Assembly: GCA_965206365.1 (NCBI GenBank)
Contig: CBDBJL010000004.1
Coordinates: 141,144 to 205,143 of the forward strand
Reading direction: 5' to 3'
Length of the DNA: 64,000 nt
Origin: Alphaproteobacteria bacterium
Lineage (GTDB): Bacteria; Pseudomonadota; Alphaproteobacteria; JABAAW01; JAHZMA01
This document shows, piece after piece, positions 37,897-63,195 of the stretch; within the stretch, counting starts at the first letter, position 1, and the number at the start of each line of letters is the position of its first letter. Made by a program: the position numbers and the translations under genes. Under the pieces are notes generated by a model. That model searched no databases, had not been told where the DNA came from, and worked only from the letters and a program-made list of their open reading frames with translations.

Positions 37897-37963
37897 TCCC
37901 CCCCTTGAATAATAATATGCGGGGGGATTTTAAGGGGGGTGGCCATCGGCTGGGCCACCCTTG
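37897..37963. repeat. G6/C6-armed nested palindromic element (family copy outside the prophage)
   Basis: tcccccccttgaataataatatgcgggggga followed by aaggggggtggccatcggctgggccaccctt. Confidence 0.6.
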
Positions 37964-38064
37964 ATTATAAAAAAATAGCGTTTAACGAGCGGGATTTACC
38001 CCTTGATCATAGAGATATTGAGCGATTTCTTTGCAGAAATCAAAATTCTGCTTTTCGGTATTTT

Positions 38065-39400
38065 CTAGCTATTAAAGTAAAGAGCAAGAAAATCAGAACT
38101 ATTGCGCTCTAACCCATCTTTGGCATGATCATAATCGCGTGTAATTTTTTCGGGTAAATTATAAACATCCGCGCCATATTGCACCATAAGCTTAAAAGAA
38201 TTCAAAATATCACCGCTAGAATCCTCTTTATACTGGTAATGCCAAGCCAACAGTGAGGCAGAAGTATATTAATAAAAATCGTAATAATTGGCAGATAATC
38301 TGGTAGGGTAAAGATTAGGATCTGCACCATATTCCAGCAATATTTTGGTAGTGGCTAAATTTTCTGGAGTTGGCTCTTCGATCATCCGATGCAGTAAACT
38401 ATAGTTATCATAATCATCATTATTAATATCTTGCCCACGGTTAATAAAAATTCTATTACCGGAAAATTATGGGCTTGAAGAGCACGACGAAACGAAGCAG
38501 CTGCAGAATATTTCGTATGTTTTACTAGGAAATCAAAAATTTCCGGATTAGAATTATGGGCGGCAAAATATAACGGGGTATCGGGTGTCATTAAGCTCTA
38601 ACCCTTCTGCAACTGCCTGTTTCACTTGTGCTAAAGTTACGGTTGCCAAAAATTGATAATCACTCTCTTTTGTAAGAATGCCAATATTATACAGATATTT
38701 CGCAATTTTCTTACAAGCATCATAATGATAACCATTTTCGTTATTAGGATACAATTCAGCATTAATAAAATATCTTTTCAATAAAGAAGACCGCATCATT
38801 TTTATAATTTCTTTCACCATAAATTTGGCTTCCACCGCCACCATAACCTCCATAAAGATATTCATTAAATAACATTATCCAACCTGCCCCCATAGGCTAA
38901 TAATAATTCAAATAGGGCTAATAATCTTATTCGTTGCTACAATATGTTCATCTGGAGCATCATAACGGGTAGCAATGATTTGTGAGTAAAGTGGTAGGTG
39001 TTGCAACAATGTCAAAATTCTCGCCATAAGAGAATAAATACGTATAGAAATTAGGATCTGCACCATATTCCAGCAATAATTTAACTTTGTCTAAATCACG
39101 ATTCTCTACGGCTCGATGCAAAGTGGTGTAGTCTTCATCATCAATAATATTAATATCTGCGCCAGCTTCCAGCAATAATTCAATTACCGGGATATTTTTT
39201 CCATTGATGGCGATGGCCAAAAGATCGGGAGTGAGGTATCGTTTTGCATAAACATCATAATAGCTATTTGTACTGGGAGTTTGTTAGAGTAAAAATTTGG
39301 CAATTTCAGGGTTAGGATTTTCAGCAGCATAATGTAGCGGTAAGAAATGCCCCTTCATAAGATCTGTTCTTATATTCATACCCTTAGGCAAGGGCATCCT
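38065..39400 (-). pseudogene. decayed ankyrin-repeat gene(s)
   Basis: At least four short minus-strand ORFs in different frames each encode ankyrin-repeat fragments (e.g. LLLEAGADINIID...TLHRAV). Confidence 0.5.
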
Positions 39401-39825
39401 TGACCTGTTTTAGCGTGGCAGTTTTCAGAAAATGATAATCTGATTGCTGTTGATTGGCATGGGCAACTACCATGATAAGGGCAGAGATACCGAATATAAT
39501 TTTCAACCATCTATATTCCATCTTTGCCCTGTATCTTCATAAAAATTGTAATCCCTATTTAAAATTACCAACAATCTTAATCAAAATTAATGTTTGACCC
39601 TTTATGTTGTGCATTTAAGTCTTTTTTAATTTTTTTAAGTGTTTCTTCGGTATGATTAAGGACATTATTTAAAAGTCTGATGCTACTTTCTTCTTTAAGT
39701 TTTATCGAGATTTCTTTGCCAAAAATTAAAATCCCTTTAATTACCTTTAACTTTGCCATAAAGCATGGTCCTTTCTAAAAAAAATGCTAGCTTTGTATGA
39801 GGGAAAATTCGCATCATCAAGAACT

Positions 39826-40611
39826 TTAGTAGTTAGAGAGAACGCCGATTTTGATCAGATAATTATCAAAGAAATCAAAATTGGCAAAATTGCCTTTCTT
39901 ATTTTTTGCTTTCACATCAGCGCCGTATTCGATTAAAATATCAATCATAGCAATCGTTTCTTCATAAGTGACATTACTAGTGGGCTCATATTGTTCATCT
40001 TCACTACATCCGCCACCTTCACTACACTCAATATAATGTTTTTCCCTATCGTATATTTGGTGTACGTATTTTCCATGAACAGCCTTAAAAAATGGGGTTT
40101 CACCATCATCATCACGGGCATTTACATCCGCCCCGGCATCTAGCAAAAGCTTGGTGATTTCAGCATTTTCAGTGTTATGCAAAGGCGTTTCTCCGTTAAT
40201 ACGATTACGGGCATTCGCATCTGCCCCTGCACTTAGTAACAGCTTAACAATTTCAGCATCGCGAGCCCAATGCAAAGGCGTATATTCCCAATAACTTTTG
40301 ATATTCACATCTGCCCCCTCTTCAATTAAGAAAATCGCAATCTCACTCCTTCCAGCAAGAAGAGCCCCAGGTAATAAAGTTTCACCATTTTCATCTCTGC
40401 TATTAATATCAATGCCCATTGCCAGTAATTCTTGAATATCAGCAAGGGTAGCGGTTTTCACATCAAAATAATATCTTATAGGATCTTCAATATCTACAAT
40501 TTCTTCCGCTTGCGCTATAACAAAAAAAAAGATTCCACCCATAAGAACACCCGTTATGAGTATGTTTATTAGCAAATTTGCGTGTTTGCTTTTTACCTTT
40601 AATTTTGCCAT
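39826..40611 (-). CDS. ankyrin-repeat protein with N-terminal signal/anchor helix
   Basis: Hydrophobic N-terminal helix followed by at least four ankyrin repeats (TPLHWA..., ETPLHNT..., ETPFFKA...). Confidence 0.8.
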   Translation of the reverse strand: MAKLKVKSKHANLLINILITGVLMGGIFFFVIAQAEEIVDIEDPIRYYFDVKTATLADIQELLAMGIDINSRDENGETLLPGALLAGRSEIAIFLIEEGADVNIKSYWEYTPLHWARDAEIVKLLLSAGADANARNRINGETPLHNTENAEITKLLLDAGADVNARDDDGETPFFKAVHGKYVHQIYDREKHYIECSEGGGCSEDEQYEPTSNVTYEETIAMIDILIEYGADVKAKNKKGNFANFDFFDNYLIKIGVLSNY

Positions 40612-40633
40612 AAATTATTCTCGTTTTCTAAAA

Positions 40634-40668
40634 AGATGCTAGCTTTGTTCATACAAAACTAGCATAAG
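40634..40668. promoter_or_regulatory. near-perfect inverted repeat upstream of the ankyrin gene; part of a 5' region duplicated at 39760-39795
   Basis: atgctagctttgt-N-acaaaactagcat; a similar ctaaaaa..atgctagctttgt leader also precedes the MAKLKV start of ORF 39577..39759. Confidence 0.35.
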
Positions 40669-40702
40669 TTTGCTTACATAACAAATAATATTTATGAAAT
40701 AT

Positions 40703-40930
40703 TTACTTACTTAAAATGCTGTTAGTTGTTTCTAAGATTTTTTTATATTCTGCTTTATCTTTTTCTGCTATTTCTGCTTTTTCACTCGCAGTTTTATAAA
40801 ATGTAGAAATTGAACTTATTGCCTCGTTAATTTTTATCATTGCCTTATTCACATCAGCAATGTTTTTTACGCATGGATTATCATTATTCCGATTTTTTGC
40901 TTCTAAAATTGCCGAGCGCATCGCCACCAA
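40703..40930 (-). CDS. hypothetical small coiled-coil protein
   Basis: 75-aa ORF, Lys/Glu-rich. Confidence 0.3.
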   Translation of the reverse strand: MVAMRSAILEAKNRNNDNPCVKNIADVNKAMIKINEAISSISTFYKTASEKAEIAEKDKAEYKKILETTNSILSK

Positions 40931-41028
40931 GGCGGCAATATCGCGTACCTTATCAATATTATAAATATTAGGATATTTAGAATCTTCAGATTTCTTTTTT
41001 ACTGCATTGTTAAATGAAAGATGGTATG

Positions 41029-41340
41029 CTTTAAGGTGGCAGTGATGTGCGACTATCTGCGAAGTGCTACGATATGGTGCGATGAGGTTGATTCCTGAAT
41101 AGATATTAAACTGCTATAATTACCTATAAATGCTTATAAACAAGGCTTCTAAGCTGTAAGGCTTGGTTTAAGATTATTCATAAACTGCCATAAAACGTGC
41201 TTCAAGTGGCTTATTTTTTTGCTTTTGCAACATGGCAGTCTCGAAATTTAGAAAACTAAAAAAAAACTTTTAAACCCTATATTTTAGGGTTTTGATTTCT
41301 AACATGGCAGTCGAAATCATCTTAAGGTGGCAGTTTAATT
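41029..41340. repeat. cluster of short direct repeats with a CGAAA core (candidate Mu-type transposase-binding sites at the prophage terminus)
   Basis: Exact 13-mer ttaaggtggcagt at 41029 and 41321; exact 12-mer aacatggcagtc at 41229 and 41301, both followed by (t)cgaaat; inverted copy aactgccat at 41183. Confidence 0.4.
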
Positions 41341-41350
41341 CTGATTAATC

Positions 41351-42100
41351 CTAAACATTTTCGGGATATTCATCCCAAGTTTTTCCGCGCCATTTACGAC
41401 CTGTTTTTTTCTTATTAACACCGCCCCATTGCTTAAAGAAGAAGGCTGTGCCAGTTTTTCGGCATAATGCTTCAATTTCAGCTATCCATTCATCATCCAT
41501 ATTTCGTGCCGAAGGGCCGCTCTCGCCACCTATAATTGCCCAATCAATCGCCGTTAAATTAGCCTTAGATACCGAAGCTAATAAGGGCTCAAACGATACA
41601 AAGCGGATGGTTGCCGGCATAAGTCGTAATTCATCAAGCCTGTCAATATAAGCGTTGCTCTCAACACTTACGCCGATCCAGATATGCGCAGGCAATTGAT
41701 AATTATATTTCATCAAAAATTCTCTAGCGCGTTCCGGGCGTTTAGTTAAAATTTGAAATTCATGCCAATCGGCTTTCAGCATCGTATTAAATGCTTGTTT
41801 AATAAATTTATCGGGGACGGCTTCATAAAATAAATCCGACATAGAATTAACAAATATTTTCGCGGGTTTACGCCATTTTAGGGGTTGTGATAACAAATTT
41901 TCATCAAAACTGGCTTTTCCGGTCCAATTGGCTTTACCTTCACGTTTAACAGTGCCAATATAAAGTGGGTGTTGCATGGCTTGCAGGCGTTCTGCCATTC
42001 GAATTGCATAGCAATTTTTGCAACCTGGCGAAACCTTAAAGCAACCTTTCACTGGGTTCCATGTGCGGTCAGTCCATTCAATTTTGCTAATTTCACCCAT
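41351..42100 (-). CDS. phage Gp37/Gp68-family protein (DUF5131)
   Basis: N-terminal IEWTDRTWNPVKGC..SPGCKNCYA signature. Confidence 0.65.
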   Translation of the reverse strand: MGEISKIEWTDRTWNPVKGCFKVSPGCKNCYAIRMAERLQAMQHPLYIGTVKREGKANWTGKASFDENLLSQPLKWRKPAKIFVNSMSDLFYEAVPDKFIKQAFNTMLKADWHEFQILTKRPERAREFLMKYNYQLPAHIWIGVSVESNAYIDRLDELRLMPATIRFVSFEPLLASVSKANLTAIDWAIIGGESGPSARNMDDEWIAEIEALCRKTGTAFFFKQWGGVNKKKTGRKWRGKTWDEYPENV

Positions 42101-42103
42101 TTA

Positions 42104-42466
42104 TTACCTCTTATAATTATTTTTTAATTGATTAATTAACACTTTAATCGTTTGTTGATCATTATCAGAAAGTTTTTTTAAATCACGATACATTGCAACT
42201 AATCCAGAATCCTCATCAGAAGCATCAGGATTTTCACCAACCAAATCAGCTATTCCTACTTGAAAAAAGTCTGCCAATCTTTTGAGAAGGTCAAGTGACG
42301 GATTTTTTGCTTTGCCAGTCTCTAAATCCCAAATATGAGTTTTGGATGCACCTACCCTAGTCGCAACATCTTGAAGAGAAATAGATTTTTTAAGTCTTAA
42401 TTGTTTTAATCGCAATGCTAATGACACTTCTTTTAATTCGTAATCGGTATATTGTTCTCTATTCAT
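42104..42466 (-). CDS. XRE-family HTH transcriptional regulator
   Basis: LSLQDVATRVGASKTHIWDLETGK...PSLDLLKRLADFF, a classic HTH_3 pattern. Confidence 0.7.
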   Translation of the reverse strand: MNREQYTDYELKEVSLALRLKQLRLKKSISLQDVATRVGASKTHIWDLETGKAKNPSLDLLKRLADFFQVGIADLVGENPDASDEDSGLVAMYRDLKKLSDNDQQTIKVLINQLKNNYKR

Positions 42467-43076
42467 AATCGCTATCCTTTTCTAGCAATTTTCTACAAGG
42501 GGGAATCCATACAAGACTGGTATTTTTTTGTGGATTTTTCTCCCAAACAAACCACGCATAAGCTGTTGCGCTTTTAATTTTGCTATCAAGTCGCCCTTTT
42601 ACTAAAGGTACGCGTTCGGCAAATGGGGCAAAGATTGTGGGGGGTGTTTGAGAAAATAAACGGTTATATCGCCCTATAGATTCTGTAAAATTACCGCGAC
42701 AAAACATGGCAACGCCATCGGTGGCAAGCCCTAACGATTTTGAAATAAAACCCTCAGCTTTGTTAAAAGGGGGATTTGTAATTACCCATTGGGGCGGATG
42801 GCAATAAAAATCATCGCTTAAAAAATCTTTTACATTAGCTTTTTCATAGCCGTAATCGTGAATGTCGGCGGCATAGACATTTTCAAAATAATCCGCTAAG
42901 GTCTCCGCCATATACCCCCTGCCGCCAAGCACGCTTTTATTTGATAAAGTGCTATTTAATACATATTTAATCAGGGCGCGCGTTGCCCAGGGCGGGGTAG
43001 GAAAATCATCTAAGCCATCGCCAATTTCATGCCGTTGCGCCATTATTGCGTAGGATCCTTTGGGTATCATTTTCAA
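42459..43076 (-). CDS. phage Dam-type DNA N6-adenine methyltransferase (putative)
   Basis: NPPF motif (WVITNPPFNK) and N-terminal FPTPPWATRAL, resembling the phage Dam MTase family; adjacent to the C5 MTase gene. Confidence 0.5.
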   Translation of the reverse strand: MKMIPKGSYAIMAQRHEIGDGLDDFPTPPWATRALIKYVLNSTLSNKSVLGGRGYMAETLADYFENVYAADIHDYGYEKANVKDFLSDDFYCHPPQWVITNPPFNKAEGFISKSLGLATDGVAMFCRGNFTESIGRYNRLFSQTPPTIFAPFAERVPLVKGRLDSKIKSATAYAWFVWEKNPQKNTSLVWIPPCRKLLEKDSDYE

Positions 43077-43080
43077 ATCC

Positions 43081-43935: not shown

Positions 43936-43938
43936 AAT

Positions 43939-47232: not shown

Positions 47233-47537
47233 GCGTCCTCCCTATTTGGGCAGATTTTGCAAGCATTAAAAAGCTGAACGCGTTGCGGCGAGGCAACGCT
47301 AAAACGTAGCTTTTGATTTTTGTTACAAGCCTCTATGCCGATTTTTCCCAAAACGGGGCAATAATTTTCACCATCCATTAAAATTTCTTGAACGCGATTT
47401 TTAACAGCATTTAGGTCGCCCTTATAATGACCCCCAAGCACCAGTGATATAGTTGCGCTAGAATAGCCAAGTTTTTTTGCCACTTTATTTTGGCTACTCC
47501 CCTTACACGCAGAGCGCAATATTTCAAGCCAATTCAT
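47229..47537 (-). CDS. HTH DNA-binding protein with C-terminal Cys-rich segment
   Basis: HTH (QNKVAKKLGYSSATISLVL) plus CPVLG...CNKNQ...CKICP. Confidence 0.45.
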   Translation of the reverse strand: MNWLEILRSACKGSSQNKVAKKLGYSSATISLVLGGHYKGDLNAVKNRVQEILMDGENYCPVLGKIGIEACNKNQKLRFSVASPQRVQLFNACKICPNREDA

Positions 47538-48099
47538 TAGCTTTGCCTTTCGTTCGCACCGCGATCATGTCGTTATTGTTGGGGTCAAATAACATGCCAT
47601 CGCTTCTAATCTCGGGGGGGTCGCCCCCCGTATTTTTAATTAATTGAATATTTTTATCAGGGCAATTTAAATATTCGCCCGTTTTTAGATCACGCAAATA
47701 ACGCATCATTGTGGTGCGGGGAATCTTCTTTTTTCGCCCAATATTAATAAGGCTAAAAAGCTTATCAACAGTGCAATTATTTAACATGCGCAAGCTCCGC
47801 CAAATTACCGCTTGCGCGCTCTCTTCAATGGGCGTGCCGTTTTGATCAAGATGCGGTGCTTTCGCACTGGGCGCAGTTAATTTCCAAATCACCATCCCTT
47901 TATGGGGGTGGTTCGGTAATTTGCCCAAGCGTTTAACTTTGCGATTTTTAGCAAATATTTGCAAATGTTCGTCAATGCTACGCTTGCGAATGGGGGTGAT
48001 GGCACTGAGATCGGGGATGGTAAATAATAATTTACCACCCTGCGTTACCTCTTGTATTGCTTGCCAGATAGCTTGATAGCCTTTTTCGGTGATAGCCAT
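47524..48099 (-). CDS. hypothetical early-region protein
   Basis: 191 aa; contains an in-frame cgggggggtcgccccccg palindrome (47608-47627). Confidence 0.4.
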   Translation of the reverse strand: MAITEKGYQAIWQAIQEVTQGGKLLFTIPDLSAITPIRKRSIDEHLQIFAKNRKVKRLGKLPNHPHKGMVIWKLTAPSAKAPHLDQNGTPIEESAQAVIWRSLRMLNNCTVDKLFSLINIGRKKKIPRTTMMRYLRDLKTGEYLNCPDKNIQLIKNTGGDPPEIRSDGMLFDPNNNDMIAVRTKGKANELA

Positions 48100-49026: not shown

Positions 49027-51210
49027 TTATCCATGAGTCTCCAACAAATACTCCTGACCAAAAGTCTCTTCCATCATTTTGAAAGATCTATAGTTTGGCG
49101 ATTGCTGATAAATTTTTAACCATTGCGCATCCTCAATATTGATAAGCTCGCCATTTGCGATGGTTTTTTCCAAAGCTTTAGATCGTTGAAACAAAGTGGC
49201 AGGGGTTGGCGCAATTTGCACCACATTAGCGGTTGAATTTTCAGCTGATTTTTGTTCAGATGCTAGTTCTGGCGCAATTGTCCGGTTGCTGATTTTTTGT
49301 GATTTTCTAGGCAAAACATGCAAATTATTCGGCGGAATTTCGCCTTCAATAAAGCCATGCTTAATCGCATGTTCACGCCGTTGGGCATGTTTAAAATTTT
49401 CTAAAATTTTGTAAAAATCGTCATTATCAATCTGTTTTGCGGCATGGGCGATTTCGCGCTTGATCTCTTTGTTATGCGCGCGCTTGGTGGCTTTGGCAAT
49501 ATGTGCCACCGCCATGCGGTTAATACCTTCAAGCTCGGCATTATAAGCGGTGAATAAATATTCGCCATTTTCAACCCCAGATACGTAGATTTGCCCCATA
49601 TCTTCTAAATCCATCGCCACTTGTACAGTGTGTCCCATATAAAGATCTATCTCATGGGCTATAAAATAATGCCGATCCGCGCGAATACCTTTTTTGCCAA
49701 TAACGCGGGTGCCATCACCACCGGCTAATTTTGCAAACAAATAATGCATAATCGTGGGATCTTCCAAAGTTTTAATCTCACCGGTATAATTGGCTAATCT
49801 TTCAGCGGGCGAGCAACCAATCCCTTTGTGGAATCCCTGATAATAATCCTCTGCCACCCAATTGCTGGCGCGCCGCGCCAATTCATCGCGGGTTAATTTT
49901 ACTTTGCTAAACCGATCAATTTTTTCACCATTCGCCCGGGCGTTGCGATAGGCAAAGCTCTGCCTGTTTTCAATTTCAGTTTTTTCGGTAACATTATGCC
50001 CGGCATAACCGGGGTTCAGGCGCATAAAAGTGTCGTTAATAGTGCCGATAGCGCGTTCGATTCCGCCCTTTTCATGGGGTGAATAGGGGTTGGTTAAATC
50101 AATATTAATCCCGGTTTTAAACATAGCGTGCTTAAACCATTTGCTGGTGAAATCGCTACCATTATCGGTGCGCAAGCGTTCGGGCATGCCCCATTCGTTA
50201 ATTGCCCGCCGAATTAACCGTAAGGATCCGTGGGTGCTGGGTGAATCTGTAATTTCTACCAATAATCGCCGTGCATACATATCGGCGATCACATAAATAT
50301 TATATCTGCCATCATCGCAGATCACATCGGCGGGGCTAGCATCGATTTCCCATAATTCATTCGGGCGGGTAAGGTGGGCATACATTTCGCCCAAAGACAG
50401 CGCATATTTGCTGCGGGCTTTATCGGGGTTGCGTAATTTTAGCGCATCTGCGGGGTTTTTACGTGCCCAAGCATTAAACCAGTTGGCAATTTGGCGCGTT
50501 GAGGGAATTTCTTGAAACCCCTTTGCCAATAATAATTGATGGATTGTTTTGCCTGCCAAGCGAGTGCGCGTAAAATGCGCGATAATCTGGGTTTGTAGGT
50601 CGCGATTTGCATCAATAATGCTAGTGCCTTTGCGGTTGCCAAACTTGCCGGCAAGGCTTTTGAAATCGCCAATATTAACGGCTTTGCGCCACCGTAAAAC
50701 ACTGGCACGCGAAATATTAGTAAAGGCAAAATCGCCTGTAATTTTTCCCGAATTAAAATCATCTACAAAAGCGTCAATTCCTGCCATAACACCAATTTTA
50801 TGCGCTAATAAATAAGCGTTAAAAGCGTTGGCAATATCGGCGCGCGCGATACCGCGATCAATAGATTTAGGCAAGGTAGCAATGGTGGGCGAGGGGTTGC
50901 CCATATTGCTACCTCTATCAGCTGGTGGTAAGGCTTTGCCGGAACCACCCTCCTGATTCTGCACTCTTCCCTTTAGATGATAATTGGCGGGGGGGTTAAG
51001 GGGGGTGTCGCTCGGCGCGACATCGCACCCCCCTTTATAAATTGCAGGGATTTTATATTCGGCACCCCCGCCCTGATCGCGGCGAATTTGGCTTTGCCAG
51101 CCATCACGCTTGGCTTTATCGACAATAGCCCGCCGGGTTTTGGGCAGAGTGGCGATTTGCAATTTTGCAATTTCACCGGCAGATAGCCATATTTTGGCAC
51201 TATCTGGCAT
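49027..51210 (-). CDS. MuA-like DDE transposase
   Basis: N-terminal HTH and rve-type DDE core (WEIDASPADV, YVIADMYARRLL); carries an in-frame palindromic element at 50985-51034. Confidence 0.8.
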   Translation of the reverse strand: MPDSAKIWLSAGEIAKLQIATLPKTRRAIVDKAKRDGWQSQIRRDQGGGAEYKIPAIYKGGCDVAPSDTPLNPPANYHLKGRVQNQEGGSGKALPPADRGSNMGNPSPTIATLPKSIDRGIARADIANAFNAYLLAHKIGVMAGIDAFVDDFNSGKITGDFAFTNISRASVLRWRKAVNIGDFKSLAGKFGNRKGTSIIDANRDLQTQIIAHFTRTRLAGKTIHQLLLAKGFQEIPSTRQIANWFNAWARKNPADALKLRNPDKARSKYALSLGEMYAHLTRPNELWEIDASPADVICDDGRYNIYVIADMYARRLLVEITDSPSTHGSLRLIRRAINEWGMPERLRTDNGSDFTSKWFKHAMFKTGINIDLTNPYSPHEKGGIERAIGTINDTFMRLNPGYAGHNVTEKTEIENRQSFAYRNARANGEKIDRFSKVKLTRDELARRASNWVAEDYYQGFHKGIGCSPAERLANYTGEIKTLEDPTIMHYLFAKLAGGDGTRVIGKKGIRADRHYFIAHEIDLYMGHTVQVAMDLEDMGQIYVSGVENGEYLFTAYNAELEGINRMAVAHIAKATKRAHNKEIKREIAHAAKQIDNDDFYKILENFKHAQRREHAIKHGFIEGEIPPNNLHVLPRKSQKISNRTIAPELASEQKSAENSTANVVQIAPTPATLFQRSKALEKTIANGELINIEDAQWLKIYQQSPNYRSFKMMEETFGQEYLLETHG
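50985..51034. repeat. G6/C6 palindromic element inserted in frame in the transposase gene
   Basis: gggggggttaaggggggtgtcgctcggcgcgacatcgcaccccccttt encodes KGGCDVAPSDTPLNPP within MuA. Confidence 0.6.
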
Positions 51211-51697: not shown

Positions 51698-51916
51698 TCA
51701 ACCCCCTGCCAAGATGGTTAGCCACAGGGCTGAATTAAGTAACAAGGTGGCGGTGATGTAAAAAAATATAATAAGGTCAGCTAAATGATCTCGGCTGGTG
51801 GGCATAAAAAAAGCACAAATAATATTTGTTAAAATGCCAGAATGCAGCAGATAATAAAAAATGCAGGCAAACGCACCATTTAACGCAAGGGTGGCGATGA
51901 TGGTAATCGGCATCAT
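51698..51916 (-). CDS. small membrane protein
   Basis: 72 aa with two transmembrane helices. Confidence 0.4.
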   Translation of the reverse strand: MMPITIIATLALNGAFACIFYYLLHSGILTNIICAFFMPTSRDHLADLIIFFYITATLLLNSALWLTILAGG

Positions 51917-52863
51917 CTTTCACCCAACTCGATGCGCAAGCCAGCCCATTGCATAAATTCATTTCGTGATTTTTGGTTGGCGGGACTCCACGCTTTTCGT
52001 AAAGCTGTTAATTGCACTTCTACCGTTTTCTGCTGATGCCCCAATTGGGCGTTTCGTAGCCGATTTGCTTCAAACCCTTCCGGGTCGGCAACACACATCT
52101 CGGCAATGTAGGGTTGCGAAAATTCTTTCGGGTCATCAACCATCAGCCGCACAATCTCGGCTTGTTTGGTATAATCGCCACAATAATTAGCAATTTTGCG
52201 CAACGCGCCATTGCTAAAGGGTGTTTTGGCTTTTTGCAAAGCTGCTTTAGTTTCCGCACCCAAATTATTATACATCGCGATGTCGCGGTTGATTGTAGAG
52301 GGGGAAAGCCCAGTTAATTGTTGAGTGGTTTTGCTAAATTCGGCAAACATATCTAGCGTTTCGGAGCGTTTACCCCCCGTATGTTGATTACCTCTATCTC
52401 CGCCATGTGGCTTTCCGTTAATTTCAACCCAAATTTCTTTGCGCTCAGTTAAAAACGTTGCCCGATCAAGCGCATTTAATTCATGCCGAATTAAATTGGC
52501 GTCGATCTCGGCAAGTTTGGCTTGTTCAGGGGTAAATTCAACAATCTCGGCTTTAATTTCGGTAAAATCCAATAATTTGCAGGCTGCTAGCCGATGCGCC
52601 CCATCAATTAAAATATATTCAGGATTATGATGCGGGGGGTTAAGGGGGGTTATCGCAAGGTGCTCTATACCCTCTTCGAGGGGCGGGGCTCCGTCTTCAG
52701 CACCGAGAAGCGATACCGCACCCCCCTTATTATAATGCACCAAAACAGGCTGTAACACGCCGTTTAGCTTAATATTTTCAGCCAAAATTTCCACATACGG
52801 TTGGCTAGTTTCGCGCAACCGCGGCGGAATTTCAATATTGACAATTTTTATGGAATCAGACAT
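51913..52863 (-). CDS. ParB-like nuclease-domain protein
   Basis: ParB/Srx motif ILIDGAHRLAAC; carries an in-frame palindromic element at 52648-52750. Confidence 0.65.
   Translation of the reverse strand: MSDSIKIVNIEIPPRLRETSQPYVEILAENIKLNGVLQPVLVHYNKGGAVSLLGAEDGAPPLEEGIEHLAITPLNPPHHNPEYILIDGAHRLAACKLLDFTEIKAEIVEFTPEQAKLAEIDANLIRHELNALDRATFLTERKEIWVEINGKPHGGDRGNQHTGGKRSETLDMFAEFSKTTQQLTGLSPSTINRDIAMYNNLGAETKAALQKAKTPFSNGALRKIANYCGDYTKQAEIVRLMVDDPKEFSQPYIAEMCVADPEGFEANRLRNAQLGHQQKTVEVQLTALRKAWSPANQKSRNEFMQWAGLRIELGER
52648..52750. repeat. G6/C6 palindromic element inserted in frame in the ParB-like gene
   Basis: atgatgcggggggttaaggggggttatcgcaagg...gagaagcgataccgcacccccctt; same family as 62606-62715 and 62945-63165. 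Confidence 0.65.
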
Positions 52864-52871: not shown

Positions 52872-53297
52872 CTATGGACGATGAATCATTTCAACTTTTA
52901 GAACGCGTGGAGATGTTGCGCGATCTTGAGGATAAAGAGAAAAACAGATAGGGTTTTTAGTCGGCTCTTTTTTAATTTTTAATCTCTCTTGCCGTTCCTC
53001 AAAGCTTACCTCGTAAGGGGCATAAGGTTTATTTCCCATCACATTTCGCCTTTTTTCATTACGAATTTTGATTTTCAAGAAGGGGTAGCTACGGTAAAAG
53101 TAACAGTGAAATTGAAACTTTAAGCCAGATTGTTTTTTTAGTTTTTTCTGGGCTTGCCGCTCAGCCTCCAAATCCTCTAGGCTTGATTTGCAAGGGTTAC
53201 GCAGCATGGTTTCAGATATTTTTTTTCGCTCTTGCCGTTCTTCGAAGCTTACCTCATGTGGGGCGTAGGGTTTATTTTTCATTAGATTTCCTTTCAA
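52872..53297 (-). CDS. hypothetical protein with internal tandem duplication
   Basis: MKNKPYAPHEVSFEERQERKKI and MGNKPYAPYEVSFEERQERLKI repeated about 250 bp apart (DNA repeats at 52975-53040 and 53222-53285). Confidence 0.3.
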   Translation of the reverse strand: MKGNLMKNKPYAPHEVSFEERQERKKISETMLRNPCKSSLEDLEAERQAQKKLKKQSGLKFQFHCYFYRSYPFLKIKIRNEKRRNVMGNKPYAPYEVSFEERQERLKIKKEPTKNPICFSLYPQDRATSPRVLKVEMIHRP

Positions 53298-53487: not shown

Positions 53488-53864
53488 ACATTCTCTTTTT
53501 TATTACGGGGGAGTGCGCTGGCACCCCCCACAAGTTTTTGGGTGTTACCTGCCAGCGCAGGTTTTCGGGGAAGAAAATTATCAGAATTTTGTATGGTGGC
53601 AGGGCTAGAGGGTACGGAAAAACCAACCCCGCCAGAAACTTTTGGACGCTCAATATCTTTTGGCCATGCTAAATTTTCGGGCCAATTATCCGAAAACCAT
53701 TGAATGATTTTGTTGTAAGAATTTAACGTGATTCCTCGACCTGCTTTTAACCGAATAAAAAAACTTCTATCATTCATGACAATCGCGGCAACACTAGTTT
53801 TACCTATATTGCGGTGCAAACAAAAGAGATTTGCTAAAGTTGTAATATTTTTTGAAGTAATCAT
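53484..53864 (-). CDS. first gene of the leftward early operon (hypothetical)
   Basis: 126 aa; divergent from the repressor gene across a 130-bp control region. Confidence 0.4.
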   Translation of the reverse strand: MITSKNITTLANLFCLHRNIGKTSVAAIVMNDRSFFIRLKAGRGITLNSYNKIIQWFSDNWPENLAWPKDIERPKVSGGVGFSVPSSPATIQNSDNFLPRKPALAGNTQKLVGGASALPRNKKENV

Positions 53865-55654: not shown

Positions 55655-55690
55655 TATCCACTAAAAATAAAGGGGGATGCTACTACCCCC
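55655..55690. terminator. GC hairpin flanked by T/A runs (bidirectional terminator-like)
   Basis: aaagggggatgctactacccccctttttt between the two minus-strand hub genes. Confidence 0.4.
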
Positions 55691-55710
55691 CTTTTTTCGG
55701 ATGATGTAAA

Positions 55711-57207: not shown

Positions 57208-57729
57208 ATGATTCCACATGCTGACATCCTTAAAAAGAACCTGCCGGATGGGCAGATTTGGCAGGTCGAAACCGACCCTCTGCTAAGCCATATTATTGCC
57301 AATTTAGGTAGTACATTAGATGCTGCACAAACGCGAATTAATCAGCTAAAATTTGAAATGTCGCCCCTTACAGCGAACGATCTTTTAGCTGATTGGGAAG
57401 CCGATGCTGGCATACCCGATTATTGCTTTCCGCTAGCAAAAACAGATGATGAGCGCGGGTTTGTTTTACGGCGCAAAATTTTAGAACGGCAACCCACCAC
57501 CAAGGCTGGCATTGGGGCTGAACTTGCTAAAATCGATATTGCGCTAAGTGATGCGCGTGGGCAATGCACGGTTACTTTGCCTGCCACAAATAAAATCTAT
57601 GCGCGTTGCGCACGATCGCGTTGCGGCAATGATCGGTTGTTACAATATTCGTCAGGTGAGCATGTAAAATGTTGGTTAAAGCGCATATTACCAGCGCATA
57701 TTTTCATAAAATTTAAGGCAAAAATCTAA
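57208..57729 (+). CDS. hypothetical late protein
   Basis: 173 aa; first gene after the activator. Confidence 0.4.
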   Translation: MIPHADILKKNLPDGQIWQVETDPLLSHIIANLGSTLDAAQTRINQLKFEMSPLTANDLLADWEADAGIPDYCFPLAKTDDERGFVLRRKILERQPTTKAGIGAELAKIDIALSDARGQCTVTLPATNKIYARCARSRCGNDRLLQYSSGEHVKCWLKRILPAHIFIKFKAKI

Positions 57730-58181
57730 TGTATTTATCTGACCATTTTAATGTGTCTGAAGCTGAAAAAAGCCAAACAGCCATTCGCCAGGGCATCGAT
57801 AATTCTGTGCCTAAAGCATTGTATGAAAATTTGAAATTGGTGGCGAATAATATTTTAGAACCCATTCGCGATGAATATGGCGAGCCATTCTCACCACAAA
57901 GCTGGCATCGCTGCCTTGAATTAAATAATTTTATTGGCGGAGCAGAAAATAGTTTCCACCTGTTAGGGCTTGCCGTGGATATTGAGCTGTTAGGCTGGGA
58001 TAATGCTGATTTTGCCAAATGGGCAAGCGAAAATCTGTATTACGATAAAATAATTTTAGAATATTACCAAAAAAACCAACCAAAATCTGGCTGGGTGCAT
58101 ATTCAATTAATGCCCAATCTTGATGATAATCGGATGAAATTTTTAACCTTTAACGGAATAAATTACGAGAGGATAATGTGA
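57729..58181 (+). CDS. peptidase M15-family endolysin
   Basis: SFHLLGLAVDIE metal-binding His/Asp pattern. Confidence 0.65.
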   Translation: MYLSDHFNVSEAEKSQTAIRQGIDNSVPKALYENLKLVANNILEPIRDEYGEPFSPQSWHRCLELNNFIGGAENSFHLLGLAVDIELLGWDNADFAKWASENLYYDKIILEYYQKNQPKSGWVHIQLMPNLDDNRMKFLTFNGINYERIM

Positions 58182-58300
58182 TGATGCATAATTTAATATG
58201 TAAAGGGGGGCATTATAAACAAGGGGGCGCGGAATGCCTAATCGGCATAGCCCCCTTGACCCCCGCTCCTGTCTCTTACAACAAGGCGGCGCACCCCCCT
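58180..58300. repeat. G/C-armed palindromic element (intergenic copy)
   Basis: gtgatgatgcat...aaaggggggcattataaacaagggggcgcggaatgcctaatcggcatagccccctt...ggcggcgcaccccccttat. Confidence 0.5.
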
Positions 58301-58330
58301 TATAAATATAATCATGAAAGGATTATTTAA

Positions 58331-58702
58331 ATGTTTGCAAAAACCATTGCCAAAACTGCAGGTGAAATTGCAGGCAAATATTTTGATAGCAAAAGCAAGG
58401 GGGCTCAGCTTGCTAGCGAGATTGAAAACGCTTTAATTACGGCGCAAAGCCAGGTGATTATTGCCGAGGCTAAGGGGGGTTGGTTGCAACGCAGCTGGCG
58501 ACCATTATTAATGCTAACGGCAATAATCATCATCTTTAATAATTACGTTATCTTGCCTTATGCGCGCGCATTTGGGCTAGATTTACCGTTGCTAGAATTA
58601 CCGGCTGGGCTGTGGGCTTTGCTGACCACAGGGGTTGGTGGTTACGTAGTGGGGCGCAGTGCCGAGAAAATGCTGCCAAATATTCGTGGTGGTAATGAAT
58701 AA
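58331..58702 (+). CDS. membrane protein, holin-like
   Basis: Two hydrophobic helices after an amphipathic N-terminus; follows the endolysin. Confidence 0.4.
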   Translation: MFAKTIAKTAGEIAGKYFDSKSKGAQLASEIENALITAQSQVIIAEAKGGWLQRSWRPLLMLTAIIIIFNNYVILPYARAFGLDLPLLELPAGLWALLTTGVGGYVVGRSAEKMLPNIRGGNE

Positions 58703-59025
58703 TGGATAATTTTTTAGATTTGCTTCGCTATTTGTGGGCACCCTTGATGGCGTTTTTTGGGTGGGCTTTTTGGTCGTTCAAAAAAGCCACAATTTCGCGC
58801 GATGAGGTAAATGAAATGATGCGCGGCATGACAGAGCGCGATCGCCGCATCGCAAAGCTTGAAGCACAAGTTGCCACAAAAGAAGATGTTGCCGAACTTC
58901 GCAACGAAATTCATCAAAATCAATTAAAAATCACCGCATCCGATGTGCGCCAAGATACGCAATTAACAAGTATCGTTCACGCGCTTGCGCGTGTAGAAAA
59001 TTATCTATTGGAAAAAACAAAATGA
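58702..59025 (+). CDS. N-terminal transmembrane plus coiled-coil protein (spanin/DUF2730-like)
   Basis: TM helix LWAPLMAFFGWAFWSF then coiled-coil; ATGA overlap with the upstream gene. Confidence 0.4.
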   Translation: MDNFLDLLRYLWAPLMAFFGWAFWSFKKATISRDEVNEMMRGMTERDRRIAKLEAQVATKEDVAELRNEIHQNQLKITASDVRQDTQLTSIVHALARVENYLLEKTK

Positions 59026-59315
59026 ATTATCATGATTTTATCACCGAAGATTTGCGATTATGTTTTTTAAAAATGTTACAGCTCGCCCCCACCCAAACGC
59101 TAAATAATCAGGTGATGGCAACGGCTTTATTCAGGATGGGCTTTAATTTGCCCACGCCCAAAATCCATTCGGTGGCAAGCTGGCTTGCCGATGCCGATTG
59201 CATTCGCATCGAAACTTTATCGCCCTTATTTATCTATCACCTTACCGCGCAAGGGGGTGATATTGCCGATGGCAAAAGCCATATGCCCGGCATTGCCAAA
59301 ATCGTAAATTTTTAA
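59022..59315 (+). CDS. hypothetical protein (Mu gp26-like position)
   Basis: 97 aa, translationally coupled to neighbours. Confidence 0.35.
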   Translation: MNYHDFITEDLRLCFLKMLQLAPTQTLNNQVMATALFRMGFNLPTPKIHSVASWLADADCIRIETLSPLFIYHLTAQGGDIADGKSHMPGIAKIVNF

Positions 59316-59324
59316 AGTAAAATA

Positions 59325-59849
59325 ATGCCGAAATCTAGCATCGAAAAATTACCTGAAGAGATCCGCCAAGCCGGATTTGCGCTGTTAAGCCAAGGCAAAT
59401 CAATTAATGAGATAACCGCGCATCTTAACAAATTAGGCAGTGAAATCGGCACTGAAATTAGCAGATCTGCGGTTGGGCGGTGGACAAAATCTGCCCGCAA
59501 ATTAACTGAGGATTTGCGCAGATCGCGCGATATGGCGATTGGCATTGCCAATCAATTAGGCGAACAATCGGCAAATGATGCCACAACGCGCTTAATTAGT
59601 GAACAATTGCAAGATATAATGATGTGCATTTTATCTGATGCCGATGGCAATATGCCAACCAAAGATATCGAACGAATTGCCAAAGCCCAGCACAATATTA
59701 ATCTTGCGCTACGCGGTTCGCAGCAATTAATTACCGAAATCGAGGCACGATTAAAGAAAAAACAAGCTGATGCTTTAACCAAAGCCGAGAAATCTGGCGA
59801 TATGCAAGCCGATGCCACTATAATGGCAATGCAGATATTGGGAATTTAA
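59325..59849 (+). CDS. Mu gp27-like small terminase subunit (DUF3486)
   Basis: LPEEIRQAGFALLSQGKSINEI...SRSAVGRW pattern. Confidence 0.55.
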   Translation: MPKSSIEKLPEEIRQAGFALLSQGKSINEITAHLNKLGSEIGTEISRSAVGRWTKSARKLTEDLRRSRDMAIGIANQLGEQSANDATTRLISEQLQDIMMCILSDADGNMPTKDIERIAKAQHNINLALRGSQQLITEIEARLKKKQADALTKAEKSGDMQADATIMAMQILGI

Positions 59850-59850
59850 A

Positions 59851-61206
59851 ATGCCATCACCATTAATAAAATTTTTACCCTATCAACAAAAATGGCTAGA
59901 TGATGATTCTCGCTTCAAGATTGGTATGTTTGCCCGGCAAACCGGCAAAACATTCACAAATTCAGCGGCAATTGTTAAGGATTGTTTGCAACAGGAAACT
60001 GATGGTAAAACCGCGCGATGGGTGATTTTATCACGCGGTGAACGCCAAGCAAAAGAGATGATGGATACCGGAATTAAACCGATGGTGAAGGCGTTTTACG
60101 AACTTAAAAATGCCCAAATGCCTAAAATTTTGGAAAATAATTATAAAACTGAAAATGCCAATTATCGGGCTTTAGAAGTCGAGTTGCCCGGTGGCAGTAA
60201 AATCACCGCCTTGCCAGCAAATCCTGATACCGCCCGCGGTTTTTCGGCAAATGTATTTTTAGATGAATTTGCATTTCATCAAAATTCGCTGGCAATTTGG
60301 CAAGCGTTGTTTCCGGTAATTCCAAAGCCGGGGTTAAAAATTCGTATTGCTTCCACACCAAATGGCAAGGCAAATAAATTTTATGAATTAATGACTTCTA
60401 AAGATGATGAATGGTCGCGGCATATTGTTGATATTTATCAGGCGGTAAATATGGGATTAGATCGTGATTTAACCACGCTTAAAAAAGCTATTGGCGATGA
60501 AGATGCATGGGCGCAAGAATTTGAACTTGAATGGATGGATGAGGCGCATAGCTGGATTTCATTCGATTTAATCATGAGTTGCGAAACCAACACAATGCCT
60601 GCCATTACGCAAAAGCCATCGATATTTATGGGCATAGATGTTGCCATTCGTAAAGATTTATGGGTATTGGTTATTTTAGAAAAGCAAGGCGATGTTTTAT
60701 ATATGCGCGATATTATTGCAAAAAAAGGCATTAAATTTGCCCAGCAAGAACATATTTTAGCAACTGCCGTACAACAATATAAACCCACACACATTGCTAT
60801 TGATCAAACCGGCATGGGCGAACAAATCACCGAGCGCGCCAAGCAAGCTTACGGCGAAACCCGCGTTGAGGGCGTTTTATTTTCGGCACCCAAAAAATTA
60901 GATATGGCAAGCCTGATGAAGCAAAAATTTCAGGATCGGCGCATTCGCATTCCGGCGGGTGATCAAAAATTACGCGCAGATTTACATGCAATTAAAATGC
61001 AGCCTTCAATATCTGGCGCGCCGCGATTAGTGGCAGATGGCAAAACCGATGGGCATGCTGATCGGTTTTGGGCTATAGCCTTGGCAATCTCGGCAGCCGA
61101 AACCGCGCCATTTAACCCATATGGCTATCAAGGGGTGCGTGGAGCGGCATCTGATATTACCGGCAATACAGAATCCGTATGGCAACAAATGCAAGGATTT
61201 TGGTGA
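59851..61206 (+). CDS. Mu-type terminase large subunit
   Basis: N-terminal ATPase ARQTGKTF, 451 aa; position in the Mu-like head-gene order. Confidence 0.75.
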   Translation: MPSPLIKFLPYQQKWLDDDSRFKIGMFARQTGKTFTNSAAIVKDCLQQETDGKTARWVILSRGERQAKEMMDTGIKPMVKAFYELKNAQMPKILENNYKTENANYRALEVELPGGSKITALPANPDTARGFSANVFLDEFAFHQNSLAIWQALFPVIPKPGLKIRIASTPNGKANKFYELMTSKDDEWSRHIVDIYQAVNMGLDRDLTTLKKAIGDEDAWAQEFELEWMDEAHSWISFDLIMSCETNTMPAITQKPSIFMGIDVAIRKDLWVLVILEKQGDVLYMRDIIAKKGIKFAQQEHILATAVQQYKPTHIAIDQTGMGEQITERAKQAYGETRVEGVLFSAPKKLDMASLMKQKFQDRRIRIPAGDQKLRADLHAIKMQPSISGAPRLVADGKTDGHADRFWAIALAISAAETAPFNPYGYQGVRGAASDITGNTESVWQQMQGFW

Positions 61207-61348
61207 TGATGGCATCATTATTAGCATATTTTGCAAAACGCATTTTAAGCGGTTCTGGTAGCGATGGGCTATTTCTAGTTAAAATGCCAGCTTGCTTAAA
61301 AATACCCCGTTTAATTTTTTGCCTTTACCCGTTTAATGAAGGGCATGT

Positions 61349-62959
61349 TTGATGAAGAAACAAATCCAAAAACCCGAAATGCAAGAAATCGCCACCGCTG
61401 GCGGTTTAGACGATATTAGCCGGTATTATAGCGGTGCCCCGCACGATGCTGATTATCGGCAATCTGCGCTTGCCAACCAAGTTGGCAACGATGAGGCTTG
61501 GCACAAGGCTGCAGAATTTGCCCGTGCCGATGGGCAAGTAGCCGCCTGTATGGGGCAACGGCATCTTGCAGTTACCTCGTTCGCTTGGGAGGTGATACCG
61601 GGCGATGATAGTAAAATAGCGCAAGATGTGGCTGATTTTATTACCCAGCAATTTGAACGGATTCGCTTCAATGATATTTCAGAAAAATTATTATGGGCGC
61701 GTTTTTACGGGGCTTCAGTTGCCGAGGCATTATGGGGCATGGAAGGTAATAAAATAATTTTGCAAGATTTGCGGGTACGGAATCTAAAAAGATTTCATTT
61801 TACCCCCGGTGGCGATGCGCTTTTGCGCACCCATACAAACCCTAATGGGCAAATTGTGCCAGAAAATAAATTTATAATTTTGCGATCAGGCTCGCCTCAT
61901 TCTGATAATCCATTTGGCGAGGGGTTAGCAGATCACCTTTATTGGCCCGTGCGGTTGAAAAAGCTAGGGGTGGCAGAATGGACTTTGTTTTTAGAAAAAT
62001 TTGCCAGCCCCACCATCACCGGCAAATATCCGGCGAATGCCAGCCAAGATGAACGCGATATCTTGTTAAATATTGCCAAATCGGTACGCCGCGATACCGC
62101 TGCGGTGATGCCAGATTCTATGATGCTAGAGATTTTAGAAATCAGCAGGCGTGGCGATGGCGGCTATGTAACGTTTGCAGATTATATGGATAAAACTATC
62201 AGCAAAATTATTATTGGGCAAACAATGACCACCGACGATGGCGCATCGTTAAGCCAAGCCCAAGTGCATAAAGTGGTTGCGGATCGGATTATAAAAGCTG
62301 ATGCCGAATTAATTTGCGAAGGCTTAAATGATACCATTGTTAAATGGTTATGCGGGTGGAATTTTGCAAACGCGCCCCAGCCCACTTTGCGCCGCATTAT
62401 GCCCGAGCCATTTGATGAAAAGGCGCGCGCTGAAACTTTGGCAACGCTTTATAATATCGGCTTTAAGCCCGATTTAAACCGCATTCAAGAAGATTTTGGC
62501 GAAGGCTTTGCAGAGAGAGATTTAAGTGCAGGAGATTTTGGTAATAAAAACCCCCCGCCCACGCAATCTACAAAAAATAATTTTGCTGAAGCTAAAGAAA
62601 ATCCTGACCCCCCCTTAAAAGATAATGAGCGGGGGGATCTTAAGGGGGGGCATCGCAAGGGGTTGAGCTCGTCTTCAATCCCGAGAAGCGATGTCGCACC
62701 CCCCTTAATAAATAAGGATAATATCGATAATATTGTGGATTTGCTAGAAGAGGGGGATCGGCTAGCTTTTGCCGAAATGCTGAATCCCATGCGCAAAGCC
62801 TTAGCAAAAGCCAAAAGCTTTGATGATTTAAACCGGCGTTTAACGCGCCTTGAAGGCAAGGGCAAAATCAACAAATTAGGCAAATTGTTGCAAGCCGCCA
62901 CTGGCTTTGCCCATATTAAAGCCAGTGATGACATAAAGGATGATCCCCTTGAAAAGTAA
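61349..62959 (+). CDS. Mu gp29-like portal protein (DUF935), with an in-frame palindromic insertion near the C-terminus
   Basis: DUF935-like N-terminus; element 62606-62715 translates in frame (DPPLKDNERGDLKGGHRKGLSSSSIPRSDVAPPL). Confidence 0.75.
   Translation: MMKKQIQKPEMQEIATAGGLDDISRYYSGAPHDADYRQSALANQVGNDEAWHKAAEFARADGQVAACMGQRHLAVTSFAWEVIPGDDSKIAQDVADFITQQFERIRFNDISEKLLWARFYGASVAEALWGMEGNKIILQDLRVRNLKRFHFTPGGDALLRTHTNPNGQIVPENKFIILRSGSPHSDNPFGEGLADHLYWPVRLKKLGVAEWTLFLEKFASPTITGKYPANASQDERDILLNIAKSVRRDTAAVMPDSMMLEILEISRRGDGGYVTFADYMDKTISKIIIGQTMTTDDGASLSQAQVHKVVADRIIKADAELICEGLNDTIVKWLCGWNFANAPQPTLRRIMPEPFDEKARAETLATLYNIGFKPDLNRIQEDFGEGFAERDLSAGDFGNKNPPPTQSTKNNFAEAKENPDPPLKDNERGDLKGGHRKGLSSSSIPRSDVAPPLINKDNIDNIVDLLEEGDRLAFAEMLNPMRKALAKAKSFDDLNRRLTRLEGKGKINKLGKLLQAATGFAHIKASDDIKDDPLEK
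62606..62715. repeat. G6/C6 palindromic element inserted in frame in the portal gene
   Basis: ccccccccttaaaagataatgagcggggggatcttaagggggggcatcgcaagg...gagaagcgatgtcgcaccccccttaat. Confidence 0.65.
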
Positions 62960-63195
62960 TGATGCGGGGGGATCACAAGGGGGGATATCGCAAAGCATTG
63001 GGCGTACCGCCTCAATGTTGAGAAGCGATACCGCTCCCCCCTTGAAAAGTAATGATGCGGGGGGATCACAAGGGGGGATATCGCAAAGCATTGGGCGTAC
63101 CGCCTCAATGTTGAGAAGCGATACCGCTCCCCCCTTGAAAAGTAATGATGCGGGGGTCAAGGGGGTTATGCCGATTAGGCATTCCGCACCCCCTT
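62945..63195. repeat. tandem array (2 exact 93-bp units plus partial) of the same palindromic element between portal and F genes
   Basis: Unit gaaaagtaatgatgcggggggatcacaaggggggatatcgcaaagcattgggcgtaccgcctcaatgttgagaagcgataccgctccccccttg at 62951, 63044 and partially at 63137. Confidence 0.8.

Follow-up and report, generated by a model that had tools for sequence, protein, structure and literature searches.

A family of G6/C6-clamped palindromic repeats lying in frame within Mu-like prophage genes of an alphaproteobacterial lineage

How can GC-rich palindromes lie inside the genes of a prophage and leave their reading frames intact? The question is raised by a 64,000-nucleotide stretch of contig CBDBJL010000004.1 from an uncultured alphaproteobacterium (hereafter the window). 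Its right part is a Mu-like prophage, as indicated by Pfam matches and by synteny with prophages of the assembly CBDETR01 and of L116, a metagenome contig from ENA that holds a further relative. The prophage encodes a DnaB helicase, a MuB-like ATPase, a MuA transposase, a terminase, a Portal_Mu portal and Mu F. An earlier note on this DNA had proposed that one repeat family with GGGGGG/CCCCCC arms occupies six loci here, three of them within genes, in the manner of the Rickettsia palindromic elements (RPEs). We consider it likely that these units belong to a non-autonomous, proliferating palindromic repeat family of an uncultured host lineage, probably invertebrate-associated; its genic copies lie in frame.

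We searched the window, filters off, with a covariance model derived from 64 copies, and recovered eight units of one family at six loci within 37.9-63.2 kb (Table 1). All six loci of the earlier note hold members. An oriented 24-base pattern, GCGGGGGGN{2,8}AAGGGGGGN{22,52}CCCCCCTT, matched four times in the window against 0.00 expected. The family had also been said to be absent from the first 37 kb, and indeed no unit was found in 1-37.9 kb, where the top covariance-model match has an E-value of 1.7. G6 runs are distributed likewise, with 39 of 41 in the window falling in 37.9-63.2 kb. Two further claims held in part. The 'tatcgcaagg...gagaagcgata' core, described as shared by all copies, is present in the units at 52.6, 62.6, 62.96 and 63.06 kb, whereas those at 37.9, 51.0, 58.2 and 63.15 kb are shorter subtypes that have the G/C clamps and the architecture in common with the others. 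The loci were placed correctly, but with boundaries off by a few bases; the unit in the ParB-like gene spans 52620-52740, not 52648-52750. Six units in the window are in plus and one in minus orientation; orientations are mixed in the CBDETR01 prophages, and we draw no conclusion on an orientation bias. At the gathering threshold, Rfam returned a tRNA alone from the whole window and no match to a family unit, and at E<=10 its best E-value in 62500-63300 was 0.72, far under gathering scores. The literature that we searched does not describe this repeat family.

The units share the skeleton GCGGGGGG-N2-5-AAGGGGGG-[variable nested hairpin]-CGCACCCCCCTT flanked by AT-rich arms, and the whole measures about 105 nt. 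Along the unit, an optional CCCCCC(C)TT is followed by 12-14 AT-rich nt, GCGGGGGG, a spacer of 2-5 nt and AAGGGGGG; the 3' half consists of a variable inner hairpin, (T/C)CGC(A/T)CCCCCCTT and an AT-rich tail. Terminal inverted repeats are present, with 5' GCGGGGGG-N-AAGGGGGG facing 3' CCCCCCTT-N-CCCCCC(GC), in addition to the AT-rich arms. Alignment of 64 distinct copies yields the consensus GCGGGGGGATTATCAAGGGGGG-TC-[5-6-bp stem]-CAAGG-[hairpin]-CCGAGAAG-[stem']-(T/C)CGCACCCCCCTT. The core measures around 80 nt; beyond it, about 14 nt upstream (..TATTgAGTAtg) and about 11 nt downstream (gATAcTATAAa) are conserved as well. In one metagenome-assembled genome (MAG), the downstream flank is followed by an outer C-run that can be paired to the first G-run. 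The fold of full units consists of two hairpins side by side, with z-scores of -4.0 (62.6 kb) and -6.6 (the 62.9-63.2 kb array). The G6/C6 clamp forms invariant columns, and double compensatory changes occur among the 64 copies in each of the nine inner-stem pairs. In the alignment, 94.5% of cells are paired and 180 cells are changed on both sides, compared with 47.6+/-6.9 in shuffles. The covariation score is 0.461 versus 0.12 in shuffles (reached by 0 of 500), and falls to 0.04-0.08 when the partners are slid.

In the ParB-like gene, the open reading frame (ORF) runs uninterrupted through the unit, which is read as YNKGGAVSLLGAEDGAPPLEEGIEHLAITPLNPPH at about residues 45-79 and splits the ParB_N domain. 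The 35-residue insert, located between 'LQPVLVH' and 'EYILIDGAHR', is absent in 16 of 16 database homologues and in both CBDETR01 homologues. With the insert, the Pfam ParB_N match reaches 17.4 bits over profile positions 20-48 only, under threshold; without it, the match is contiguous over positions 20-85 and reaches 27.1 bits. This is the only protein that we modelled, and AlphaFold (mean predicted local distance difference test score, pLDDT, of 82) predicts residues 49-78 as coil with pLDDT<50 between strands 40-44 and 83-87. The insert is modelled as a disordered loop.

In the portal gene, the unit is laid out as C7TT-loop-GCG6, then AAG7-nested stems-C6TT, and is read as PDPPLKDNERGDLKGGHRKGLSSSSIPRSDVAPPLINK. 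The ORF passes through it into a C-terminal segment conserved with the portals of CBDETR01, phage B3 and Chromohalobacter phage YPCBV-1. The B3 and YPCBV-1 portals are without the insert, and the CBDETR01 portal carries the element inverted in the same linker (KGGAMSLQGDEDRAHRLATTPLNHPP versus the window's ERGDLKGGHRKG...VAPPL). In MuA, the unit (GCGGGGGGGTTAAGGGGGG-tgtcgctcggcgcgaca-TCGCACCCCCCTT plus arms) is read as IYKGGCDVAPSDTPLNPPANYH (residues 57-78) directly after the N-terminal Mu helix-turn-helix (HTH), and the ORF is continuous. The Pfam HTH_Tnp_Mu_1 match stops at residue 56, and phage MuA homologues align to residues 4-57 only, i.e. up to the start of the insert.

Could these Gly/Pro-rich segments be native linkers or low-complexity sequence of the phage proteins, with convergent similarity at the DNA level? 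The inserts do lie in length-variable regions, namely the portal C-terminal linker and the stretch after the MuA HTH. However, the same ~80-nt DNA, with its non-coding features, recurs in intergenic arrays in both orientations, the segment that 16 ParB homologues are without splits a Pfam domain, and orthologues carry the element inverted or at other sites. We regard native linkers as scarcely credible. The earlier note's view that the segments are inserted, and that they preserve the frame in all three genes, is borne out: the ORFs are continuous with homologues aligning on both sides of the inserts, and the peptide is missing from the ParB homologues and from two phage portals, while phage MuA alignments end where it begins.

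Relatives of the prophage point to repeated and independent insertion. CBDETR01 holds two syntenic Mu-like prophage copies whose proteins are 30-66% identical to those of the window. Its MuA has MIYSIKGGAVSLHGDEDEAHHLATAPLNNPP at a site left empty in the MuA of the window; in the JAHZMA01 MuA, a copy lies near the C-terminus, and in L116 a different hairpin subtype occupies the window's MuA site. In the Mu protease/scaffold gene, the element is found in opposite orientations in two genomes (loci L059 versus L093). Moreover, some events are recent. The CBDETR01 prophage copies c2 (contig_2) and c4 (contig_4) are 98-99% identical, and a Gp36 homologue has a 33-codon insert in c4 that is missing from paralogous c2. 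Conversely, a 45-nt hairpin (15 codons) at the end of MuA is found in c2 only, not c4. These differences in site and orientation among relatives, together with presence and absence between near-identical prophages, support the RPE-like reading of the earlier note. A systematic search for filled and empty sites was mostly confounded by arrays, and yielded the c2/c4 cases and cassette swaps alone. In such a swap, downstream of paralogous ankyrin genes, one hairpin cassette is replaced by another between identical flanks.

Six loci of CBDETR01 (L009, L028, L029, L051, L087, L101) contain paralogous gene arrays ending in ankyrin repeats, each such gene being followed by a variable stack of hairpin cassettes with swapped modules. 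Multi-copy flanks in this assembly were initially suspected to be an insertion sequence, a candidate that we rejected, as they are paralogous ankyrin-gene arrays.

Cassette replacement between identical flanks also bears on another explanation, in which the family spreads without transposition, by recombination or gene conversion between the G6/C6 clamps and AT-rich arms or by template switching at hairpins, hairpin cassettes thus being copied to places that are arm-like beforehand. The different subtypes at one MuA site, the Gp36 polymorphism with its diverged flanks and lack of target duplication, and a perfect tandem duplication in the window are in line with it. Yet the first insertions into unrelated coding sites (the ParB_N turn, the middle of MuA, Gp36) need more than an exchange between clamps, and donor-like flanks were not identified. 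Recombination as the sole route is possible, but unlikely.

How are the genic copies read? They use three of the six frames, and their readings start with Gly-Gly or Arg-Gly and finish with Pro-Pro, since Gly and Pro are what the homopolymer clamps encode. Across all copies, the same three frames are open more often than in shuffles (0.60-0.71 versus 0.44-0.51). This excess is modest, and the core is therefore not strongly pre-adapted. We hypothesise that within genes only stop-free insertions that add a multiple of three bases survive, and that survivors would be those in loops and linkers, such as the ParB_N beta-hairpin turn, the point where the MuA HTH ends and the C-terminal linker of the portal. 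The inserts would be translated through, with the clamps supplying Gly-Gly/Pro-Pro whatever the frame or orientation, and the peptide (KGG...PLNPP, RG..KGG...APPL or GG..KGG...PPL) may loop out, bracketed by flexible hinges.

Alternatively, genic copies might stay untranslated, either cut out of the mRNA or passed over by the ribosome, for which mitochondrial 'byp' elements and T4 gene 60 are precedents. Bypass elements, as stable GC hairpins in AT-rich coding sequence, look alike. However, all genic copies that we examined (three in the window and around ten in relatives) are stop-free and keep the downstream frame, a pattern that selection on translated inserts predicts and that would be needless if the copies were removed. 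A further case comes from type ISP restriction-modification enzymes of two MAGs (L094 1-3021, L102 3381-7199), which carry an element at the same site within the methylase module, between the N6_Mtase and Eco57I matches. These orthologues read the element in different internal frames, and we therefore take it to be an old, retained insertion; its retention despite the differing frames also speaks against removal or bypass, which we judge very improbable.

The family extends well beyond the prophage. In a scan of one genome per species, the pattern was found mostly in three MAGs labelled 'Alphaproteobacteria bacterium' (CBDBHZ01, CBDETR01 and JAHZMA01, all assemblies other than that of the window), each of which has it on many contigs. 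The sponge MAG JAHZMA01 is placed close to the GTDB order JABSOH01 (PMC13393909). The window and the three MAGs together hold 97 copies, of which about 13 are genic and the remainder intergenic, often in arrays. Spread over many contigs of three related MAGs and mostly intergenic, the family is a host-lineage repeat, not a phage-specific one, yet it is concentrated in Mu-like prophages. In CBDETR01, 16 of 39 copies lie in the two Mu-like prophage copies, which make up 72 kb of at least 2.24 Mb (~3%), an approximately 13-fold enrichment computed from fragments. The earlier note's contrast between local enrichment and a generic host repeat comes out only partly in its favour, with eight units against none across the window's two parts but a wide, mainly intergenic distribution in the MAGs. 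A pattern scan of IMG/VR gave two unrelated high-GC matches only, and the array had no blastn match among 72,556 plasmids and 50,697 phages. A metagenome scan with the portal found one relative, at 31% identity, and no empty-site comparator for the insertions in the window.

The intergenic units of the window show what the family looks like outside genes. The 37.9-kb unit is ordered as C8TT, an AT-rich loop, GCGGGGGG, ATTTT, AAGGGGGG, a short hairpin and CCCTT, and a two-hairpin fold is predicted for it. At 58.2 kb, an outer G6...C6TT clamp surrounds the hairpin AAGGGGGcgcggaatgcctaatcggcatagCCCCCTT (58221-58257), whose reverse complement recurs at 63159-63195. In the array that separates portal from Mu F, two 93-nt units (62945-63037 and 63038-63130, 100% identical) form a perfect tandem at 62945-63130, and a third unit with a short hairpin (63150-63195) follows them. 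The portal gene takes its final four codons (PLEK) and its stop codon (62957-62959) from the arm of the array's first unit. Within 62940-63200, a different frame has an 86-aa ORF that consists wholly of repeat sequence.

Such positions between genes or at gene ends (58.2 kb, 62.9-63.2 kb, downstream of ankyrin genes) are what one would expect if the units were primarily functional structured RNAs or DNA signals that regulate phage and host operons, with genic copies as by-products. The strong covariation with conserved unpaired nucleotides fits this as well, and REP-type (repetitive extragenic palindromic) repeats are thought to act in this way (PMC3733652). Against it, Rfam gives no match, no intrinsic-terminator T run is found in the family units, in which CCCCCCTT is followed by a mixed AT-rich arm (the hairpin at 55670-55693 is unrelated), both orientations relative to transcription occur, near-identical prophages differ in presence and absence, and array composition is variable. 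A primary role as regulatory signals is, in our view, quite unlikely.

A proliferating selfish repeat is the account that we favour; the rival explanations (native linkers, regulatory RNA, removal from mRNA, recombination alone) fit less well. We propose that an enzyme acting in trans mobilises the units. Most likely it recognises the hairpin folded from a single strand, not a duplex terminal repeat, since unpaired nucleotides stay conserved whereas the stems covary. Recombination between clamps may then exchange hairpin cassettes; a contribution of this kind is suggested by the cassette swaps and by the absence of target duplications. Mu-like phages may ferry the family between hosts.

Several observations weigh against this reading. 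No target-site duplication was seen at the two filled/empty sites of c2 and c4, these two are the only presence/absence cases at the nucleotide level, and the flanks of the Gp36 insertion are diverged. For MuA, no element-free orthologue spans the site, so that the assignment there rests on DNA homology (40 bits, E=6e-9), and the Pfam test with and without the insert showed no change. No Y1/HUH transposase was found near copies in 113 loci (tblastn with Y1 transposase queries), and the two IS200/IS605 tnpA genes of the window (16875-17354, 20866-21300) have ends unrelated to the family. Covariation cannot separate DNA from RNA hairpins, translation through the inserts is read from open frames only, and the MAG figures rest on 8-kb pieces, which makes the enrichment approximate. 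In addition, the loci examined contain no parent insertion sequence with termini of the family.

Compared with described repeats, this is a new family of a known type, the intragenic RPE/REP-type palindromes. In behaviour it matches intragenic REPs and RPE-1 to RPE-8 (Ogata et al. 2000; summaries in PMC3767692 and PMC3733652). Like the RPEs, it is a multi-copy palindromic repeat of ~100-150 bp in an alphaproteobacterial lineage that is probably associated with eukaryotes. Many RPE copies lie in frame within ORFs that are left intact, as do the units in MuA, ParB and portal here and, in relatives, those in MuA, portal, protease/scaffold, Gp36 and the type ISP enzyme. RPE peptides are solvent-exposed, and the ParB insert is predicted to be a loop by one AlphaFold model. 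In both, different repeat groups occupy the same or nearby sites in orthologues. However, the carriers here are neither Rickettsia nor Wolbachia, the copies are mostly in intergenic arrays, and the genic ones are concentrated in genes of Mu-like prophages, not in housekeeping genes. The G6/C6 double clamp, AT-rich arms and covarying nested stems also set the family apart from RPEs, which we compared by description only.

The second comparison is with the GTAG- and CGTC-tagged REPs and REPINs, which are mobilised by RAYT (REP-associated tyrosine) transposases (PMC3733652). These too are GC-rich hairpins, often in inverted pairs or clusters that form larger structures, like the arrays and double hairpins here; they lie mostly downstream of genes, and some sit inside ORFs and encode 20-30 residues. 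The 8-bp stem with A/T at its first two positions (AAGGGGGG) fits the geometry of CGTC-REPs (PMC3733652). Next to this stem stand TATC, TGTT or TTAA at the 5' foot and GATA or AATA at the 3' foot. Unlike REPs, the family has no GTAG or CGTC tag beside the stem, its units are longer (80-105 nt) with nested stems, and no RAYT was found near copies in the 113 loci.

[quoted passage not shown] Here, in contrast, two sites lack a target-site duplication, no parent insertion sequence was found, and structure is conserved rather than terminal sequence. Outside bacteria, yeast GC clusters and Allomyces double-hairpin elements are mitochondrial examples of a similar kind. Mitochondrial GC clusters, double-hairpin elements and coding palindromes (e.g. 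PMC6649704) are GC-rich hairpins, sometimes double, that invade AT-rich genomes including coding sequence; being organellar and without sequence relationship to the family, they offer no more than an analogy.

The skeleton GCGGGGGG-N2-6-AAGGGGGG-[cargo]-CCCCCCTT is also multi-copy, and often tandem, in MAGs of four other phyla (Table 1), some of which have the minimal mini-hairpin AAGGGGGGTCG(T)CCCCCCTT as repeat unit. These matches were picked by the search pattern itself, and their likeness may be convergent. It would be a speculative extension, which we hold to be unlikely, that GCG6-N-AAG6-[cargo hairpin]-C6TT represents an undescribed and widespread superfamily of structure-specific mobile hairpins, moved by an enzyme, with Mu-like phages as carriers here and with clamps adapted for invasion in any frame via Gly-Gly/Pro-Pro hinges.

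Table 1. Positions of repeat units, their host genes and other features of the window, with loci of the skeleton in other phyla
Feature	Position	Strand	Covariance-model match	Remarks
Mu-type portal gene (536 aa)	61349-62959	+		Pfam Portal_Mu, 300 bits; hosts the 62.6-kb unit
Full double-hairpin unit	62604-62717	+	62629-62706, 79 bits	In frame, portal C-terminal linker
MuA-type transposase gene (727 aa)	49027-51210	-		Pfam rve, Mu-transpos_C, HTH_Tnp_Mu_1
Short-subtype unit	50975-51046	+	50987-51035, 40 bits, E=6e-9	Inside MuA gene (-)
ParB_N-domain gene (316 aa)	51913-52863	-		Hosts the 52.7-kb unit
Long-subtype unit, extra inner hairpin	52620-52740	+	52632-52728, 61 bits	Inside ParB-like gene (-)
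Truncated unit	37897-37975	+	37919-37962, 23 bits, E=2e-4	Intergenic, directly upstream of the start of ORF 37619-37897 (-)
Composite intergenic unit	58204-58301		58221-58266, 21 bits; 19 bits on other strand	Between ORFs 57729-58181 and 58331-58702
Array between portal and Mu F	62945-63199	+	62964-63043, 74 bits; 63057-63136, 74 bits; 63150-63195, 23 bits	Three units
Minimal hairpin GGGGGGGTCGCCCCCC	47611-47629		No match	Inside ORF 47524-48099 (-)
Phage tail gene, GpJ-type	2186-4456			
Type I restriction-modification hsdR	7799-11002			
Type I restriction-modification hsdM	13031-15547			
IS605-type tnpA	16875-17354	-		
IS605-type tnpB	17320-18489	+		
GmrSD	21401-23224			
Skeleton loci, Calditrichota VGIO01				L005, L012, L027, L032, L043, L070, L092, L111
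Skeleton loci, Roseiflexus CALGYB01 (Chloroflexota)				L008, L014, L016, L035, L058, L084, L103, L104, L113
Skeleton loci, Acidobacteriota, Actinomycetota and unclassified MAGs				L002, L007, L090, L006, L057, L068, L074, L078

The short palindromes that had been flagged as perhaps related fare differently. The hairpin at 47611-47629 is possibly a minimal relative of the family; in other MAGs, this mini-hairpin, AAGGGGGGTCG(T)CCCCCCTT, serves as the repeat unit. That at 55670-55693 (AAGGGGGatgctactaCCCCCCTT), with T/A runs on both sides between two minus-strand ORFs and a model E-value of 0.64, looks like a bidirectional intrinsic terminator and is probably not a family member. A third short G/C palindrome, at 53507-53530, was examined and assigned to no class.

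Ahead of the prophage, the window holds, from left to right, a defence island, a tRNA, a host operon and ankyrin genes. The first 23,224 nt, at ~50% GC, contain the phage tail, type I restriction-modification and GmrSD genes of Table 1, and look like a separate mobile or defence island beside the tRNA (24455-24528). Within it, at 15803-20854, an IS605-type element splits a nuclease/SF1-helicase gene into 15803-16834 and 18446-20854, and a solo IS200-type tnpA (20866-21300, minus strand) adjoins a perfect 27-nt inverted repeat (21283-21309 / 21324-21350). The compact host operon at 24585-37040 (minus strand) comprises GCV_T/DUF1989, ABC permease, glutamate-synthase-like and glutamine-synthetase-like genes; it resembles the N-methylglutamate (methylamine) pathway and would be atypical for a strongly reduced endosymbiont. 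Diverged direct repeats, 73-83% identical, at 52975-53047 / 53218-53290, 38309-39195 and 39741-40648 point to tandem paralogous small early prophage genes and to duplicated ankyrin-repeat genes just outside the prophage.

For annotation, the finding means that inserts can sink domain matches below threshold, as the fall of ParB_N from 27.1 to 17.4 bits illustrates. More broadly, in-frame palindromic repeats such as RPEs and intragenic REPs are classic, mechanistically unsolved selfish DNA that makes new protein segments. The present family adds a well-delimited example outside Rickettsiales, with a structure backed by covariation and with recent gain or loss between near-identical prophages. 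The same phage proteins, including portal, transposase and a ParB-type domain, have been hit repeatedly and independently. Because the units reside on a compact Mu-like phage, the sites that tolerate them trace the flexible loops of its proteins, and a small mobile platform could be reconstructed in a tractable host as a means to learn how such elements are moved.

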